Position numbers and translations under genes: made by a program. The notes under the pieces were generated by a model. It was not told where the DNA came from. It was given only the letters and a program-made list of their open reading frames with translations, and did not search any database. DNA of 64,000 nucleotides. It comes from Methylococcales symbiont of Iophon sp. n. MRB-2018. Its GTDB lineage: Bacteria; Pseudomonadota; Gammaproteobacteria; Methylococcales; Methylomonadaceae. Location of the stretch: NCBI GenBank assembly GCA_003666325.1, contig QPIL01000118.1:2402-66401 (forward strand), read 5' to 3'. This document shows, piece by piece, positions 30,948 through 47,675 of this stretch (within the stretch, counting starts at the first letter, position 1; each line of letters begins with the position of its first letter).

Positions 30948-33277
30948 CTGATTTTAGTATCGCCGTTGTAGGTAATCCCAATTGCGGTAAAACCACATTA
31001 TTTAATGCTCTAACAGGTTCTAGACAACAGGTTGGGAACTGGTCAGGAGTGACCGTTGAAAAGAAAACGGGAGAATATAGTTATAGCAAAAAGCAGATAG
31101 CAGTTGTTGATTTACCAGGTACCTATTCATTAGAATCTACAGATGATGATGTTTCTCTGGATGAAAAATTAGCTAGAGATTATGTCGCATCAAATCAGTC
31201 TGACTTGATTATTAATATTATTGACGCATCTAACTTAGAAAGAAATTTATATTTGACATCACAACTTATTGAAATGCGTGTACCAATGATATTGGTATTC
31301 AATATGATGGATGAGGTTAAGCGGCGTGGAATTAAAATTGACCTAGATTGTATTGCAAAACAATTAGCATGTCCTGTTGTTCCAATTATAGCTTCAACGG
31401 GCATGGGGTTGGAGCAATTGCAGATTGAAATTAACAAAGCGGTTGACAATATTTCGGTTCCAGAAATACAAATTCAGTACTGTAATGCCATCGAAAAAGC
31501 AATTTCCAGTTTATCTTTGCAGTTAATGGATCAGGCTGAGAACAGTCGATGTGATTTAAGATGGTTAGCCTTACGTTTATTGGAAGAGGATACCTTAGCT
31601 AAAGGTATTGCTGGCGAACAAGTGACATCTGATGTAAAAGCATTACAGTTATCAATTGAGCAAGAAACAGAAGATGAAATTGATATTTTAGCAGCCGATG
31701 CACGTTATGGTTTCGTTAATGCGTTAACACGGAAAAGTGTTTGCCGTTTAAATGAAGTATCGCGACATATATCAGATAAAATTGACAGAATTGTATTAAA
31801 TAAATTCCTTGGCATCCCTATCTTTTTATTAGTCATGTATGCCATGTTTATGCTTACCATTAACGTTGGTAGTGCTTTTATAGATTTCTTTGATCTTGCC
31901 GTAGGTGCAATTACGGTAGATGGTCTTAGTGTTGTATTAACGCATCTAAGTTTTCCTGAATGGTTGGTAGTATTAATTGCTAATGGTTTAGGTGGTGGTG
32001 TTCAGGTTGTGGCTACCTTTATACCTATTGTCGGTTTTTTATTTATCTTTTTATCAGCGTTAGAAGATTCGGGCTATATGTCCAGAGCGGCTTTTGTGAT
32101 GGATCGGTTTATGGTGATGATAGGTTTGCCGGGCAAAGCCTTTGTACCGATGATTGTAGGGTTTGGTTGTAATGTCCCCGCCATTATGGCAACACGTACA
32201 TTAGATAAACAAAGTGATCGTATATTGACTAATTTAATGAACCCTTTTATGTCATGTGGCGCTAGATTACCGGTATATGCTTTATTTGCTGCTGCATTTT
32301 TTCCAGTAGGTGGGCAGAACCTAGTTTTTGGACTGTATTTACTAGGTATTATTGTTGCCGTTATTACTGGATTGATTATGAGACATACTCTTTTTAAAAC
32401 GGATGTAACAGCGTTTATTATGGAGTTACCCACTTATCATATGCCCACGATTAAAGGTGTTTCTATTAAAACTTGGGATCGGCTTAAAGCCTTTATTTTT
32501 AGCGCAGGAAAAGTAATTGTGCCAATGGTTCTGGTTTTAAATTTTTTAAACTCATGGGGTGTAGATGGTAGTTTTGGTCAGGAAAATAGTCAAACATCGG
32601 TACTCAGCGAAATTGGTAGATCTTTAACCCCTGCATTTAAACCGATGGGTATTGAGAAAGACAATTGGCCGGCAACGGTCGGTATTTTTACTGGTGTTTT
32701 AGCTAAGGAGGCCGTGGTTGGTACTTTAGATGCGTTGTATAGTCAAATGGCTACAGTTGAAGGTGATAAAGAGGAACAGGTGTTTAGCTTATCTGCTGCA
32801 CTATTAGAAGCTTTTGCCACGATTCCTGAGAATATTACTGCCGTTGCTGGTAACCTTCTTGATCCTTTAGGATTGAATATAGGCGATGTATCGTCCCTAG
32901 ATATGGCTGCTGCAGATCAGGATGTTGATACCGGTACTTTTTCGGCAATGAAAGCCAGTTTTGATGGTCAGGCAGGTGCTTTTGCCTATCTATTGTTTAT
33001 CTTACTTTATGCACCGTGTGTTGCCGCAACGACTGCAATATATCGGGAAACAAACGCTAGTTGGGCATTGTTTGTGCTTTTTTGGACCACGGGATTGGCC
33101 TATATGTCAGCTACTATTTTTTATCAAGTAGCAACTTTCTCACAACACCCTGCTTATTCTACACAATGGATAGTAGGGCTTATTATTGCATTTATCGTCG
33201 TCTTGTTTGCTTTGTGGTGTTACGGAAAATCTTTTCAAATTGCAGAAATAGAACAGAAAAGTAATGATTTTATCTGA
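30944..33277 (+). CDS. feoB: ferrous iron transporter FeoB
   Basis: 777 aa. The G domain has VVGNPNCGKTTLFNALTG and DLPGTYSL, followed by the polytopic gate domains. Confidence 0.96.
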   Translation: MTDFSIAVVGNPNCGKTTLFNALTGSRQQVGNWSGVTVEKKTGEYSYSKKQIAVVDLPGTYSLESTDDDVSLDEKLARDYVASNQSDLIINIIDASNLERNLYLTSQLIEMRVPMILVFNMMDEVKRRGIKIDLDCIAKQLACPVVPIIASTGMGLEQLQIEINKAVDNISVPEIQIQYCNAIEKAISSLSLQLMDQAENSRCDLRWLALRLLEEDTLAKGIAGEQVTSDVKALQLSIEQETEDEIDILAADARYGFVNALTRKSVCRLNEVSRHISDKIDRIVLNKFLGIPIFLLVMYAMFMLTINVGSAFIDFFDLAVGAITVDGLSVVLTHLSFPEWLVVLIANGLGGGVQVVATFIPIVGFLFIFLSALEDSGYMSRAAFVMDRFMVMIGLPGKAFVPMIVGFGCNVPAIMATRTLDKQSDRILTNLMNPFMSCGARLPVYALFAAAFFPVGGQNLVFGLYLLGIIVAVITGLIMRHTLFKTDVTAFIMELPTYHMPTIKGVSIKTWDRLKAFIFSAGKVIVPMVLVLNFLNSWGVDGSFGQENSQTSVLSEIGRSLTPAFKPMGIEKDNWPATVGIFTGVLAKEAVVGTLDALYSQMATVEGDKEEQVFSLSAALLEAFATIPENITAVAGNLLDPLGLNIGDVSSLDMAAADQDVDTGTFSAMKASFDGQAGAFAYLLFILLYAPCVAATTAIYRETNASWALFVLFWTTGLAYMSATIFYQVATFSQHPAYSTQWIVGLIIAFIVVLFALWCYGKSFQIAEIEQKSNDFI

Positions 33278-33491
33278 GCTAAGAAATTATCTTAAAGAAA
33301 AAAAAAGAGTGACCTTAAATGAATTAGTGATTCATTTTGATGTAGATGCTGATGCGCTCAGAGGCATGTTAGCCCAATGGATGAAGAAAGGTAAAGTGCG
33401 TCAATTGCCCATAGGTTCTGGTTGTGGTTCAACATGTATTAAATGCGATCCTACTCTGACTGAGTTTTATGAGTGGGTAGTCAGGGACTAA
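33264..33491 (+). CDS. feoC: FeoC-like winged-helix protein
   Basis: 75 aa. ..LSELRNYLKEKKRVTLNELV.. is followed by a Cys cluster GCGSTCIKCDP. The stop TAA lies inside a GGACTAA repeat unit. Confidence 0.8.
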   Translation: MILSELRNYLKEKKRVTLNELVIHFDVDADALRGMLAQWMKKGKVRQLPIGSGCGSTCIKCDPTLTEFYEWVVRD

Positions 33492-33505
33492 GAACTAAGG
33501 ACTAA
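33485..33505 (+). repeat. heptamer tract T6a (GGACTAA GAACTAA GGACTAA)
   Basis: Read directly. It contains the feoC stop codon. Confidence 0.9.
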
Positions 33506-33514
33506 GTCCTGATT

Positions 33515-33633
33515 CTTTAGTCTTTAGTCTTTAGTCTTTAGTCTTTAGTCTTGAGTCTTGAGTCTTGAGTCTTGAGTCTTGAGTCTTGAGTCTTGAGTCT
33601 TGAGTCTTGAGTCTTGAGTCTTGAATCTTGAGT
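33515..33633 (-). repeat. heptamer tract T6b, 17 units ((CTTTAGT)x5 (CTTGAGT)x12 on the + strand, one unit CTTGAAT)
   Basis: Read directly. On the minus strand it reads (ACTCAAG)n then (ACTAAAG)n, in sense with proS. Confidence 0.97.
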
Positions 33634-35340
33634 CCCCATTTTTTCTGTTAAAAATTCAATAATTCCATTAAGCGCAATGTCCTCGCTGTCTTTATCTGTT
33701 CTGGCTTTATATTCAATAGTACCAGCATCCAAGGATCTTTCACCCAAGACTAGGCGATGCGGAATGCCAATGAGTTCCATATCTGAGAACATAAAACCTG
33801 CACGTACTTTACGATCATCGAGTAATACTTCAAAGCCTGCGTTAAGCAGTTGTTGGTAGAGGCTATCAACAGCTACTTTTAAGCGCTCCGATTTATGCAT
33901 ATTCATCGGGCATAAAGCAATTTGAAATGGGGCTAAATTAGCCGACCAGATGATCCCTTTATCATCATGGCTTTGTTCGATAGCAGCAGCTACAATTCTG
34001 GAAATGCCTATACCGTAGCAACCCATAATCATGGTTTGGTTTTTGCCTGCTTCATTGATAACACAGGCTTTCATTGCTTTGCTGTATTTATCACCTAATT
34101 GAAAAATATGACCTACTTCAATACCACGGGCAAGGGTGATTAAGCCTTTTCCATCGGGACTTGGGTCACCTTCAACTACCATACGAATATCTTCAATTTG
34201 TTGAGGTAAGGGCAGGTCTTTTCCCCAATTTACGCCTGTGTAGTGCTTTTCATTTTGATTGGCACCACAAACAAAATCAGACAGTAGGCTAGCGCTACGG
34301 TCTACAATTACAGTGATATTCAACCCAATAGGGCCAATTGAACCAGGTTTACATTGGCAACTGGCAAGAATTTGTTCATCACTGGCAAACTCTAAAGGTG
34401 AAAGTACCGCTTCTAATTTTTCTGCTTTAAGTTCGTTAAGTTCATGGTCTCCACGTAATAATAATGCAATTAATTGATCATTCTCACCCTTAACAATTAA
34501 GGTTTTTAAGCATTGTTGAGCCTTTATGTTAAAAAATTGACTGACCTCTTCAATGCTATGTTGTTTAGCGGTATCAACTAGCGTTAGTTCTGCTATGGCA
34601 GAAGAGCGTGAAGCAGAGGGCATAATGGCCTCTGTTTTTTGTATATTTGCGGCATAGTCACTTTCAGTAGAAAAGGCTATGGCATCTTCGCCCGAATCTG
34701 CCAGTACATGAAACTCATGCGATATTGCACCACCTATAGAACCGGAATCTGCGATAACAGCACAAAACTTTAATCCTAATTGATTAAATATATTACTGTA
34801 TGCCTGATACATGACATCATAGGTTGCTTGTAAAGACTTTTGATCTAAATGAAATGAGTAAGCATCTTTCATGATAAATTCACGAGAGCGCATAATACCA
34901 AAGCGAGGACGAATCTCATCACGTACTTTGGTTTGAATTTGATAATAGTTGATCGGTAATTGTTTGTAGCTTTTTAACTCGTTTCTAGCCAGATCAGTAA
35001 TGATTTCTTCATGCGTTGGACCTAGGCAAAAATCACGATCATGACGGTCTTTTAAACGTGCTAATTCTGGGCCGTATTGCTCCCAGCGTCCTGTTTCTTG
35101 CCAGAGTTCAGCAGGCTGCAAAACAGGCATTAATACCTCTAAAGCACCTGCTTTTTCCATTTCCGCTCGAGTGATTTTTTCTACTTTACGCAACACTCTT
35201 AATCCTAAAGGCAACCAGGTATACAAACCCGCTGCTAGTTTACGAATTAAACCTGCTCGAATCATTAGTTTATGGCTGGAAATTTCAGCATCCGCAGGAA
35301 TTTCTTTGACAGTGCTAAGAGGAAATTGAGAAGTACGCAT
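33538..35340 (-). CDS. proS: prolyl-tRNA synthetase with a repeat-encoded C-terminal tail
   Basis: 600 aa. Bacterial-type ProRS with an insertion (editing) domain. ..[17 protein letters not shown].. is class II motif 2 and ..GCYGIGISR.. is motif 3. The last 31 residues GTQDSRLK(TQDSRLK)x3TKD are translated from tract T6b. Confidence 0.95.
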
Positions 35341-35706: not shown

Positions 35707-36000
35707 TTACGCCTTTGTTACTGATAATTGGATAACATGCAGTTCTTTACGATGCTGCTCAAACTGCCAAAGATCGTATTGGGATTGCTGGTTTAACCAA
35801 CTCTCAGATGAGGTATTAAATGCAATGGATAAGCGCACAGCCATTTCGGGACTTATCCCCGATTTACCGTTAAGAATGGTTGATAATGTTTTGCGGCTAA
35901 CACCAAGTCCTTTAGCTGCCTCAGTTACAGTTAAGCCTAAAGGCTCGATGCAAAGTTCTTTTAAAACTTTGCCGGGGTGTGTGGGATTGTGCATTAACAT
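35707..36000 (-). CDS. higA: HigA-family antitoxin (XRE HTH)
   Basis: 97 aa. ..[50 protein letters not shown].. is the canonical HigA/VapI HTH. Confidence 0.87.
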
Positions 36001-36009
36001 AAGATAGCC

Positions 36010-36288
36010 TCAATGATAGTTTTCATAATCTACAATTTCAGCGTGAGATCCATTAAAACAAAATGTCACACGCCAGTTTTCACTTACACGTACAGACCAA
36101 ATTTTTGCTCGATTACCTGTGAGTTGGTGCAGGAACAGGTCTGGTAAATCCATATCACTAGGTGATGAAGCAGCATTAAGACGACCAAGAATTAATTGGA
36201 GCCGCTTTATATGCTTTGCTTGTATGGCTGATTTGCGACCAGTTTTAAAGAATAATTCTAGACCCTTATGCTTAAAGTTCTGTATCAT
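36010..36288 (-). CDS. higB: HigB-type (RelE/ParE superfamily) toxin
   Basis: 92 aa. MIQNFKHKGLELFF..G....I........RL..L.. matches the plasmid-maintenance-killer HigB pattern. The toxin-first order, 9 nt upstream of higA, also fits. Confidence 0.85.
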   Translation of the reverse strand: MIQNFKHKGLELFFKTGRKSAIQAKHIKRLQLILGRLNAASSPSDMDLPDLFLHQLTGNRAKIWSVRVSENWRVTFCFNGSHAEIVDYENYH

Positions 36289-36518
36289 TTATTAAATGCA
36301 ACCAATAACGTAACAGGTGTCAATTGAGTTTGGCACATACGCCAAAATCAGATGCCGTTGCCAAGTGTTCGATGAACTCTGACAAAGCACTGAACTTTGA
36401 TATAAACTGACCTTTGAATCGGCTGGAACTTCAATCGACCCCTTTGATTCTTTTATCTCGATATTTTTTAAGGTTTTGATTCATTGCAAAAACCACTTAA
36501 TACGGTAATAATTCAATT

Positions 36519-44478: not shown

Positions 44479-44555
44479 CTTTAGTCTTTAGTCTTTAGTC
44501 TTTAGTCTTTAGTCTTTAGTCTTTAGTCTTTAGTCTTTAGTCTTTAGTCTTGAGT
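44479..44555 (-). repeat. heptamer tract T7 ((CTTTAGT)x10 (CTTGAGT)x1 on the + strand)
   Basis: Read directly. It contributes the last codons (..TQD) and the TAA stop of the RND pump gene. Confidence 0.95.
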
Positions 44556-47500
44556 ATTCCCCCTTATAACTTTTTTAAATTGAAAGCGGTAGTCTTCCAG
44601 AATTACACAAAAAGTAGGTATCAAAACCAGGGTCACTAAAGTAGTAAATAAAATACCAAAACCTAAAGATACAGCCATAGGAATTAGAAATTGTGCTTGG
44701 GTGTTTTGTTCAAGAATTAATGGCATTAAGCCAAAAAAGGTGGTGAGAGAGGTTAACAAGATAGCTCTAAAACGACTGCAACCAGCGTTTATTATTGCCT
44801 CTGACACGGTTTGATCTTGTTGCCGCAAATTATTGAAACGGTCGATCAGTACTAGGCTGTCGTTAACGACTACACCCGACAAAGCTAACATACCTAATAT
44901 GCTATTAATGGTTAGATTCATTCCCATGATTACGTGTCCCAGAATGGCACCGACTAAACCGAAGGGGATGACTGACATTACGATAAAAGGCTGTAGATAA
45001 GATGCAAATGGGATGGCTAATAAGGCATAGATAACGACCAACATAAATAAAACACCCATGAGTAGACTGCTAAAGGATTCATCTTGTTCTTTGGCTTCAC
45101 CGATGAAGCTGAAATGAACATCAGGGTAAAGGGATGAAATATCATTTAAGAAATTATTCACTGCATATTTTATGGCGTTGGTATTGCCCTTGGATTTATC
45201 AACATCGGCAGTAATAGTAAAGGCACGGTTTCGATCAATACGGCGGATGACAGATGAGCCTTTAATTGATTTTAATGTGGCAACATCTGCAAACGGTACT
45301 TCTACGCCATCTGGCGTGCGAATCATCATGGTTTCAAGATTGTTGAGCGAATGACGCTCTGATAAGGGATAACGCAACATCACTTTTAATTCTTCGCGGT
45401 TGCGTTGAATACGTTGTACTTCTAGGCCATAAAAAGCTTGTCGAACTTGATATGCCAAATCCGATAAGGTAAGCCCAAGAAACTCCGCTTGTGGTTTTAT
45501 ATTGAGCCTTAATTCTTGTTTACCACCCTCAAAATTATCATTCACATCAAAAACTTCTGCCAAAGTAAGCATACGTTGTTTTATATCATTGGCAAAGTCT
45601 TCCAGTTGTTGCAGGTTATTGGACTGTAATTGAATATCTATAGGGCTACCACCATGACCAATTTCAGCTCTGAAATTTAAGTCTTCGACACCTGGAATGA
45701 TCCCAATTTGTTCTCGCCATTCTTTAACCAAACGACTAACAGGAATATTGGGTATGCGATTTTCTGGCGGTTCCACCTCAAACATCACACGACCTTCTTG
45801 TGGTTGAGGATTACCACTACGATCAGATTGTCCTGTGACTGAGTACACAGCTTTAATAATACTTTTGCCATCAACTTCATTGATATACCGTTGTTGCAGA
45901 ACATGAGCAGCATCAGCAATTTGTCGGGTATAACGGTCAGTTAGTAGATAAGGGGTGCCGACAGGCATTGTTAATTTTGCTCTAGCCACTTCACTTTCTA
46001 TTCTAGGAAAAAAGGTGTAACCAATGTGTCCGCCTGCAACTAGGCTTAAAATAATCATACCTCCAGCTATAAAAATAGAGGCAGTTAAATAGCGTTGCTG
46101 GACTACCTTAACCATAAAGGGTTGATAATATTTTGTGATAATATTTTGTAAAAAATCACTACAGACATCTTGTATTCTTTCTAAGCAGTTATTGTTTGAG
46201 GTTTTTATTATAGGTTTACAATGTTTTAAATGGGCAGGGAGTACTAATTTAGTTTCTATTAGAGAAAATAGCAGGGCAGGGATGACGACTAAAGCGATAT
46301 AAGCAAACATTTGTCCTCGCCGTCCATCAATGCTTAGCATAGGTACGAAGGCTGCCACCGTTGTTAATACGCCAAAGGTAACTGGTGTTGCAACTTCCTG
46401 AACCCCAGCAATTGTCGCTTCAACACTATCGCCAATTTTTTGTTGTAAATGATGGTAAATGCTTTCTCCTGTTACTATGGCATCATCGACCACAATGCCC
46501 AACACCATAATAAAGGCAAAAGTCGTGCTTGTATTTAAGGTGACACCTAATAATGGCATGGTGGCGAGCACTCCTAAAAAGCTGACTGGAATACCAATAC
46601 ATACCCATATAGCGACAGATAAGCGTAAAAAAATAGTCAATAAAATAAAGACCAGTATGCCGCCTTGTAGTGCGCTTTTTAATAAGGTGCTAATACGACC
46701 TTCGATGATTTTAGAACGGTCTCGCCAATAGCTGATTTTTATAGTAGGCGGAAAACCTGCCTCAGCTTGTTTAATATAGTGTTTGACTTTATCTGCGATG
46801 GCAATAGCATTTTCATCACCTACACGGGTAATGTCTATCATTACTGCTGATTTACCTTGGTAAACTGAAGCTAGATTACCTTCCATAAAGCCATCAGTAA
46901 TTGTTGCAATATCACTGAGTTTGAGTCGTATACCTTTTTCACCACCGCGAATAATAATTTTTTCAAAATCTTCCTGATGATAAGCCTGTCCACGAGAAGA
47001 TAACAATATATCTCCACCTTTACCTTTAATAGTTCCGGCAGAAACATTGAGTGAACTGCGGTTAATTGCACGGGAAATTTCTTCAAAGGTCAGTCCATAT
47101 CGTTTTAATTGTTGTTCAGACACTTCAATAGCAATTTCATAAGGTCTAACTCCTGTGAGTGCTACTTGAGAAATGCCATTAAGGGCAACAATATCATCAC
47201 GTATTTTTTCACCAATACGGCGTAAATCCCTCTCTGCCATGTCTGCGGATATAACAACACTAATCACATCATAATTGTGCTGTACAATTTTTATATCAGG
47301 ACGTTCAATTTCTTCTGGAAAGCTATTGATGGCATCAATACGTGTTTTTAAATCATCCATAATGTCACGGGTATTGTAGCCGCGTGCGATCTCGACATCG
47401 ACAGTCGAAGTACCCTCCATCGCCGTTGAAACGATTTCTTTTATACCTTGCAGATCATGGATAGCCTCTTCAATCCGTATGACCACATCATGTTCCATTT

Positions 47501-47675
47501 CTTCGGGAGTGGCACCCGGGTTAGCAATACGAATATTGACTACGTCATATTCATACTGTGGCAATATTTCCATAGGAATTTTTGGCAAGGCAAAAAGACC
47601 TGCCAGCACAATAAGCACCATTAATAGATTAGCGGCAACATCATTGTAGGTAAACCAGCGTATTATTGCAGACAT
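44544..47675 (-). CDS. RND efflux transporter, inner-membrane permease
   Basis: 1043 aa with 12-TM AcrB-like topology. The N-terminus MSAIIRWFTYNDVAANLLMVLIVLAG and two large periplasmic loops are present. Confidence 0.92.
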   Translation of the reverse strand: MSAIIRWFTYNDVAANLLMVLIVLAGLFALPKIPMEILPQYEYDVVNIRIANPGATPEEMEHDVVIRIEEAIHDLQGIKEIVSTAMEGTSTVDVEIARGYNTRDIMDDLKTRIDAINSFPEEIERPDIKIVQHNYDVISVVISADMAERDLRRIGEKIRDDIVALNGISQVALTGVRPYEIAIEVSEQQLKRYGLTFEEISRAINRSSLNVSAGTIKGKGGDILLSSRGQAYHQEDFEKIIIRGGEKGIRLKLSDIATITDGFMEGNLASVYQGKSAVMIDITRVGDENAIAIADKVKHYIKQAEAGFPPTIKISYWRDRSKIIEGRISTLLKSALQGGILVFILLTIFLRLSVAIWVCIGIPVSFLGVLATMPLLGVTLNTSTTFAFIMVLGIVVDDAIVTGESIYHHLQQKIGDSVEATIAGVQEVATPVTFGVLTTVAAFVPMLSIDGRRGQMFAYIALVVIPALLFSLIETKLVLPAHLKHCKPIIKTSNNNCLERIQDVCSDFLQNIITKYYQPFMVKVVQQRYLTASIFIAGGMIILSLVAGGHIGYTFFPRIESEVARAKLTMPVGTPYLLTDRYTRQIADAAHVLQQRYINEVDGKSIIKAVYSVTGQSDRSGNPQPQEGRVMFEVEPPENRIPNIPVSRLVKEWREQIGIIPGVEDLNFRAEIGHGGSPIDIQLQSNNLQQLEDFANDIKQRMLTLAEVFDVNDNFEGGKQELRLNIKPQAEFLGLTLSDLAYQVRQAFYGLEVQRIQRNREELKVMLRYPLSERHSLNNLETMMIRTPDGVEVPFADVATLKSIKGSSVIRRIDRNRAFTITADVDKSKGNTNAIKYAVNNFLNDISSLYPDVHFSFIGEAKEQDESFSSLLMGVLFMLVVIYALLAIPFASYLQPFIVMSVIPFGLVGAILGHVIMGMNLTINSILGMLALSGVVVNDSLVLIDRFNNLRQQDQTVSEAIINAGCSRFRAILLTSLTTFFGLMPLILEQNTQAQFLIPMAVSLGFGILFTTLVTLVLIPTFCVILEDYRFQFKKVIRGNTQD

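Follow-up and report, generated by a model that had tools for sequence, protein, structure and literature searches.

Tandem repeats built from a seven-nucleotide unit have been described in two bacterial settings that come closest to the locus analysed here. TAACTGA heptamer direct repeats occur in marine Beggiatoaceae, cyanobacteria, and Bacteroidetes as lineage-restricted, abundant and mostly intergenic arrays (MacGregor 2015, PMC4679880). In one orientation they carry stops in all frames and overlap the stop codons of 13 ORFs, and in the open orientation they are translated at protein edges, for example at the C-terminal end of MurG, as a 7-residue repeat (PMC4679880). G-rich heptamers, GGGAATC in Xanthomonas and GGGGA(T/C)T in Nostoc, form the second group (Rehm et al. 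2015, PMC4692102). These are over-represented in intergenic DNA, occasionally occur as inverted pairs and accompany different genes in sister species; the GGGAATC heptamers show no conservation between species and lie on the sense strand at most 50 bp from stop codons (PMC4692102).

The AAGACTM arrays of a Methylococcales symbiont of Iophon sp. n. MRB-2018 (genome of 2.09 Mb, GC 37.7%, assembled in 123 contigs) share such traits with each group; an orientation closed in all frames, and an open one that would be translated at protein ends, are traits in common with the TAACTGA arrays. Like other prokaryotic heptanucleotide simple-sequence repeats, among them TAACTGA, GGGAATC and cyanobacterial STRR, they are found at many loci, mostly intergenic and not at orthologous sites. 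Their units match neither TAACTGA nor GGGAATC/GGGGAYT, so that, with close precedents known (PMC4679880, PMC4692102), the unit sequence itself appears new relative to both. TAACTGA arrays have another unit, 2-6 copies and a position mostly directly upstream of start codons (PMC4679880), whereas AAGACTM arrays reach up to ~44 copies, stand directly after stop codons and are carried on a MITE. The G-rich heptamers form G-quadruplexes and favour four units (PMC4692102), in contrast to AAGACTM, which has one G per unit and no G-runs. A tail on an aminoacyl-tRNA synthetase is not reported for the TAACTGA repeats (PMC4679880), and protein tails are not described for the GGGAATC/GGGGA(T/C)T repeats (PMC4692102). 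A literature search for heptanucleotide repeats in methanotrophic symbionts returned nothing relevant, and the main text of the study on the genomes of methane-oxidising symbionts of Campeche sponges does not mention the repeat family (Rubin-Blum et al. 2019, PMC6474228).

The window, that is, the whole stretch of 64,000 nucleotides analysed, contains the prolyl-tRNA synthetase gene proS and the convergent gene feoC, with arrays in the spacer between them. The features of this region are as follows.

33264..33491, plus strand: feoC, 75 aa, convergent to proS (ORF and Pfam).
33487..33513, plus strand: short feoC-sense array GGACTAA GAACTAA GGACTAA GT, then CCTGATT (TRF and sequence).
33498..33510, no strand assigned: small hairpin AGGACTAAGTCCT at the head-to-head junction of the feoC and proS arrays (terminator-like scan and folds).
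33508..33633, minus strand: proS-sense heptanucleotide array (TRF and unit parse).
33538..33540, minus strand: TAA stop in use, inside the second ACTAAAG unit (sequence).
33541..33633, minus strand: array-encoded tail of 31 codons, residues 570-600, (TQDSRLK)x4 plus TKD.
33538..35340, minus strand: proS ORF, 600 aa (ORF call).
33634..35340, minus strand: proS body, ProRS residues 1-569 (ORF, Pfam domains and 5UCM alignment).

Judged by its domains and alignments, the proS product is a bacterial-type class II (class IIa) prolyl-tRNA synthetase with an INS editing domain. Pfam places the class II core (tRNA-synt_2b, PF00587) at residues 96-456 (E 2e-35), the INS editing domain (PF04073) at residues 260-372 (E 4e-23) and the anticodon-binding domain (PF03129) at residues 473-566. 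The P. aeruginosa ProRS 5UCM aligns to residues 1-568 (E 3e-244) and ends two residues beyond the aligned body, without a tail (closest solved ProRS, 5UCM/8W8J). The family architecture, in which the protein ends at ~570 with the anticodon-binding domain, is not kept here, as 31 residues lie beyond; by this comparison the body is a full family member and the tail is an addition outside the family architecture. A single ProRS gene was found in the genome, the other class II match being 25% identical. A HigB-like toxin and HTH antitoxin pair lies directly upstream of proS (~35710-36290 of the window).

The conserved body ends ...IEFLTEKMG (Gly569), and the frame then enters a period-7 array (33505-33634, 18.6 copies by TRF). 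Read on the coding strand, its units are ACTCAAG (33633-33627), ATTCAAG (33626-33620), ten ACTCAAG (33619-33550), five ACTAAAG (33549-33515) and AATCAGG. The proS-sense array is thus composed of 12 CAAGACT-type units open in all frames, 5 AAAGACT units with TAA in every frame and one degenerate unit. As no frame of (CAAGACT)n on the proS coding strand contains a stop codon, read-through follows directly from the sequence. Since 7 and 3 share no factor, CAAGACT-type units yield TQDSRLK with a period of 7 residues whichever frame is used. The ORF coordinates and the tail peptide given by the original prediction were recovered exactly by the ORF and unit parse, and on this reading frame the tail would be translated as part of ProRS. 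No MITE body or terminal inverted repeat (TIR) lies within 60 nt of the proS-sense array.

How the tail arose can be read from the sister species (G002), whose ProRS is 96% identical. There, proS ends ATT GAA TTT TTA ACA GAA AAA ATC GGG TGA and is followed by ~240 nt of ordinary spacer and then by convergent feoC. The proS gene studied here matches that of the sister species up to GGG and then runs on as ACTCAAGATTCAAGACTC...; across the lost stop the sister species reads ...GAAAAAATCGGGTGA and this genome reads ...GAAAAAATGGGGACTCAAGATTCAAGACTC. Since the sequence past GGG is array, the native TGA (directly after Gly569) and the entire ordinary spacer are gone, and the comparison makes stop loss almost certainly the origin of the tail. 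It also bears out the proposal that the tail derives from a microsatellite, and it marks the tail as a recent addition, the sister species ending ...IEFLTEKIG-TGA at the same place. In the genomes of ~30 relatives, homology ends at ProRS query residues 566-576, apart from two alignments that continue past a stop codon into spacer DNA. The alignment of proS 3' ends in relatives, suggested earlier as a check, therefore finds the tail in none of the ~30 searched, and it is likewise absent from solved ProRS structures.

An RNA run of the sister symbiont has the ordinary spacer and no array at the proS locus. When this metatranscriptome was compared with positions 33516-33553 of the window, AAAGACT tracts turned up within long transcript contigs of 3.2 and 4.6 kb or at their termini, which indicates that such arrays are transcribed in the sister species. 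A second relative of the genus (G011, ProRS 80% identical) carries different arrays in its proS-feoC spacer (L012, G011:C18, 1930-2060), so this spacer seems to have been hit independently. Its proS stop TAA lies within degenerate sense units (GACGAAA GGCTAAA), and its feoC reads into (AAAGACT)7, that is, (CTTTAGT)x7, ending ..KEVKGRLKTKD before the stop.

On the feoC side of the spacer, the last residues of FeoC have been rewritten, to ..FYEWVVRD before the stop as compared with ..FYQWGDE in the sister species, and the feoC TAA stop is supplied by the short feoC-sense array (33487-33506). The CCTGATT that follows this array falls short by a single base of CCTTGATT, the canonical junction between array and MITE body, for which reason the feoC-sense array together with CCTGATT is probably, by its sequence, the remnant of a MITE left end. 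The MITE origin of the proS array may be argued by analogy with other arrays of the genome and from this 7-nt remnant. The two arrays face each other, and a longer inverted pairing between them surrounds the AGGACTAAGTCCT hairpin. The scan for terminator-like structures found a hairpin of only 5 bp at the array junction and no canonical or U-tract intrinsic terminator in the array; an intrinsic terminator inside the array was therefore ruled out.

Period-7 repeats dominate this genome. Perfect period-7 tracts of at least three copies number 340, whereas the other periods between 4 and 12 yield 2-78 each. TRF reports 378 period-7 arrays covering 22.3 kb, or 343 arrays and 21.7 kb when merged, with lengths of 15 to 309 nt and the units AAAGACT, AAGACTC, AAAGACG, and ACTCAGG. 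AAGACTM three-unit windows occur 1081 times here, as compared with 23, 16, 14, 8, 6, and 1 in six relatives of the genus and zero in 54 of the 60 relatives searched (genus, family and order). With no relative exceeding 23, the expansion is a lineage-specific burst. Mismatch-repair loss was considered as its cause and rejected, because MutS (an 858-aa open frame) and MutL (606 aa) are intact here and in relatives. One heptamer array (C45:10483-10587) lies close downstream of the MutS domain V region (C45:9714-10277; whole span C45:9714-10587). At C22:2921-3286 and C105:41446-41754, ORFs of 100-120 aa consist almost wholly of translated array; these are likely spurious gene calls from stop-free CAAGACT/AAGACGA units.

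The genome contains 193 AAGACT-type arrays, of which 109 lie at most 60 nt from the body of a MITE of ~390 bp present at ~208 loci; the other 84, the proS array among them, are solo. The element resembles MITEs of the IS630/Tc1-mariner type with a TA target in its ends, GTCAA(G/C)CCTTAAAAA flanked by TA, and in its ~200 non-coding copies, a likeness drawn from the TIR sequences and the TA flank. Unlike such MITEs, it holds an expandable heptamer array inside one end, beginning directly after the left end, and the proS locus keeps arrays only. Intact left ends number 36 as against 166 other ends, and the array-bearing end is usually eroded. The CCTTGATT junction follows 55 of 181 arrays exactly and a further 27 with one edit. 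A second array-to-body junction type, AAGTAACTG, was seen 55 times, a frequency equal to that of the 55 exact CCTTGATT junctions, which suggests two MITE subfamilies sharing the array-bearing end.

The proS tail is not special to proS, as the original prediction had treated it, since ~28 ORFs end in arrays across the genome. Counts of this kind are approximate, as the gene set behind them is crude and takes in every ORF that reaches 100 aa (1698 genes, 78% coding). In 28 cases the 3' end of a gene enters an array that has AAGACT on the gene's coding strand; in 2 further cases AAGACT is on the opposite strand. Ends of the form ...KTKD or ...KTQD before the stop, encoded by the array, are found on multiple unrelated proteins, and among these ~28 C-terminal tails that of ProRS is the longest. 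The tail of HemB is absent from 21 of 21 relatives of the genus. The RND pump gene starting at 44544, singled out earlier as ending ..NTQD-stop in an array, does so. The array-tailed proteins identified are listed below.

C80:2378-3475: HemB, porphobilinogen synthase, 28 residues.
C81:3870-5006: MbnH/MauG-like di-haem protein, ~25 residues.
C123:2129-4294: peptide ABC-transporter binding protein, 21 residues.
C115:68318-69532: Pgk, phosphoglycerate kinase, 11 residues.
C81:2292-2594: TusA, ~25 residues from AAAGACG-type units, ..KDERRKTKDERRKTKDGRLKTEY.
44544..47675 of the window, minus strand: RND pump ACR_tran, ending ..RGNTQD before the stop, inside an array.
Others: LpxD, AroE, GltD, MazG, ATP-dependent DNA ligase, RdgC, peroxiredoxin (bcp), and AI-2E transporter.

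A graded series of junctions is seen at gene ends. In 12 genes the working stop is a TAG made of the TA target and the first G of the TIR (TA|GTCAAGC...), with array-bearing left ends accounting for six of them and other ends for six (e.g., C6:10957, C18:1, C63:1, C115:22753). In others, the stop is fused to the first unit (T-AAGACTC, T-AGGACTA), and in a third group ORFs without a stop of their own read into the array. This series, from TIR TAG through fused stop to lost stop, suggests an origin by insertion, expansion and deletion. In a first step, a MITE would insert at a TA at or near a stop codon, where TA plus the first G of the element would often form a working TAG stop. The array inside the left TIR would then expand, and deletions from the unstable array would finally take the TIR together with the MITE body and, in some genes, the native stop as well.

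We therefore regard the proS tail as, in all likelihood, a tolerated stop-loss extension produced when a MITE-associated array overwrote the proS-feoC spacer. As the comparison with the sister species shows, a lineage-specific AAGACT(C/A) array has replaced the whole convergent spacer, with deletion of the native proS TGA. Ribosomes would read on through the 12 CAAGACT-type units and halt at the first in-frame TAA of the AAAGACT units, and the predicted product is a normal ProRS carrying a 31-residue charged, low-complexity appendage. The case resembles known stop-loss (non-stop) extensions in that the native stop is lost, former 3' non-coding DNA is read to the next in-frame stop and the catalytic body is unchanged. 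It departs from ordinary stop-loss in that the repeat guarantees an open frame and then a stop, the added peptide is periodic and length-quantised, and the event recurs in ~28 genes.

Placement of the arrays at gene ends invites another explanation, namely that they are purpose-built gene-end elements, acting as a 3'-UTR RNA or DNA signal (for termination, mRNA stability or protein binding) or as the target of directed insertion, that their role would require a position at the stop codon, and that the ProRS tail is the price of their placement. Of the 193 arrays, 160 are intergenic. Those overlapping or following an ORF stop within 30 nt number 71 in sense and 5 in antisense, where random placement gives 15.7 +/- 3.5 (~16) per orientation (binomial probability 5e-16), and this sense bias is common to MITE-linked and solo arrays. 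Convergent spacers are enriched for arrays, and the GGGAATC heptamers of Xanthomonas are similarly placed after stop codons (PMC4692102). The two strands also fold differently, the proS-sense array RNA being unstructured, no more folded than shuffled sequence (z +0.5), and the antisense array RNA folding strongly (-68 kcal/mol, z -6.4), and the head-to-head feoC and proS arrays form a hairpin. A signal kept for its function is hard to reconcile with orthologous sites that are empty in the sister species, a family nearly absent from 60 relatives, array lengths that range from 15 to 309 nt and a search for a canonical terminator that found none. Insertion at the TA in stops, by a MITE whose array lies inside its left end, would by its geometry produce such a bias; MITE right ends also abut stops, and the 12 TIR-derived stops are the element's own TAG. 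Insertion geometry and tolerance account for most of the sense bias at stop codons, which leaves a true gene-end function a slim possibility, and the purpose-built element an unlikely account of the tail. A broader form of the idea, in which AAGACTM arrays are a lineage-specific gene-end module or the footprint of a stop-codon-targeting mobile element tagging ~28 genes, has in our view a small chance of being correct. If it were, proS, hemB, lpxD, pgk, and others would carry a common charged (TQDSRLK)n tag, tunable by slippage in 7-residue steps, and a vertically transmitted symbiont would have gained either a C-terminal appendage able to evolve across its proteome or a 3'-UTR control element common to many genes.

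The tolerated stop-loss extension, our preferred reading, also agrees with the properties of the tail itself. The MSA-based AlphaFold model of the 600-residue protein (mean pLDDT 83.4, pTM 0.78), used in place of a single-sequence model with a mean pLDDT of 31.6, gives pLDDT 88-97 for residues 470-570 as against 38-42 for residues 572-600 and draws the tail as a continuation of the last helix without confident packing. At the end of the anticodon-binding domain the tail would, on this model, probably be either unstructured or a free helix. Its codons are atypical, CTC, which makes up 4% of Leu codons genome-wide, and AAG, 17% of Lys codons, each being used four times.

Changes in unit number were simulated with 0-24 perfect units at proS. 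Total lengths ran 579, 579, 579, 586, 586, 586, 593..., each unit gained or lost altering the length by either 0 or 7 residues, with the register always starting TQDSRLK and only the last three residues varying between TKD and TQD. The earlier expectation that each unit would change the tail by 2-3 residues gives way to 7 residues per three units, and the register, predicted to permute, is fixed. The further expectation that a unit change creates no premature upstream stop holds at all 0-24 units, which give the full body plus tail, and a phase-variation switch was rejected on the same result. The locus recalls the contingency loci of Haemophilus and Neisseria in having a slippage-prone repeat, with a unit that is not a multiple of three, overlapping a coding sequence. 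Unlike those loci, the proS repeat stands at the extreme 3' end and encodes the same peptide in all frames; as unit changes never switch the protein off, an on/off switch is impossible.

That the tail is instead an adaptive, length-variable charged appendage of ProRS, serving as a solubility, localisation, or interaction module and tuned by slippage, seems very unlikely to us. The tail is fixed in three samples from two studies, it is the longest in the genome and stands on an essential single-copy enzyme, and the array design guarantees an intact body at any unit number, all of which would suit such a role. The same peptide is, however, attached to unrelated enzymes, to transporters and to a periplasmic binding protein, and the tail is absent in every relative examined. 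Model confidence is low, the codon use is non-native, and the two assemblies compared show no difference in array length, which also gives no support to the variability that the original prediction considered for the tail. The shared peptide, the absence in relatives, the low pLDDT and the atypical codons argue together for a tolerated by-product. Of the two readings first offered for the tail, a tolerated parasitic extension is accordingly the one that fits best, given unrelated proteins that share the peptide and relatives that do without it. The tail is fixed in all samples seen, and its carrier is an essential enzyme encoded by one gene copy; the evidence fits a neutral or slightly advantageous role no less than pure tolerance.

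The sequence of the locus was compared with three metagenome runs, two labelled ‘sponge metagenome’ (2019) and one ‘symbiont metagenome’ (2025), and it is present in all three at 99% of sampled words. Logan contigs from these runs, with depths of 944, 608, and 232, match the locus without a mismatch; those entering from feoC extend to 33539/33541 and those entering from proS to 33603/33605. At k=31 they collapse the middle of the array and thus confirm the junctions and not the unit number. A joint in one run (X3) that appeared to skip 52 was attributed to alignment ambiguity of a collapsed repeat contig and not to an allele. The same 600-aa protein and the same array recur unchanged in a second NCBI assembly (GCA_003666345.1, QPIK01000124.1; 99.98% identical over 4.8 kb), and the 600-aa ProRS forms a singleton protein cluster on two contigs with identical arrays. 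Both array junctions are real, appearing in the three metagenomes and again in the second assembly. For the published symbiont genomes SPAdes was run with k up to 127 (Rubin-Blum et al. 2019, PMC6474228); as the ambiguous stretch measures 105 nt, this k was long enough for the unit number to be resolvable.

An assembly artefact, with the array mis-joined or collapsed and the real stop elsewhere or the tail of another length, is barely credible, for although 42 arrays lie at contig ends and the part of the proS array from 33541 to 33603 is where the Logan contigs break, the proS side is stop-free through at least four units in three runs, two assemblies have an identical array, k=127 spans the ambiguous stretch, and (CAAGACT)n cannot supply a stop, so that the tail exists whatever the unit number.

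The arrays at contig ends (e.g., C12:1-50, C18:1-70) point to heptamer arrays as a main cause of assembly fragmentation in this genome, a matter of relevance to the assembly of symbiont genomes. In annotation, array tails are to be taken as real ORF ends and not as errors, and in the interpretation of symbiont proteomes they would count as ‘new’ C-terminal extensions. No new biochemical function of ProRS is indicated. On this evidence, a microsatellite carried by a mobile element can remodel the 3' ends of numerous housekeeping genes, a single-copy aminoacyl-tRNA synthetase among them, in a symbiont with a reduced genome without destroying these genes. Stop loss is survivable because no frame is closed in one unit variant and all frames are closed in the variant that follows.
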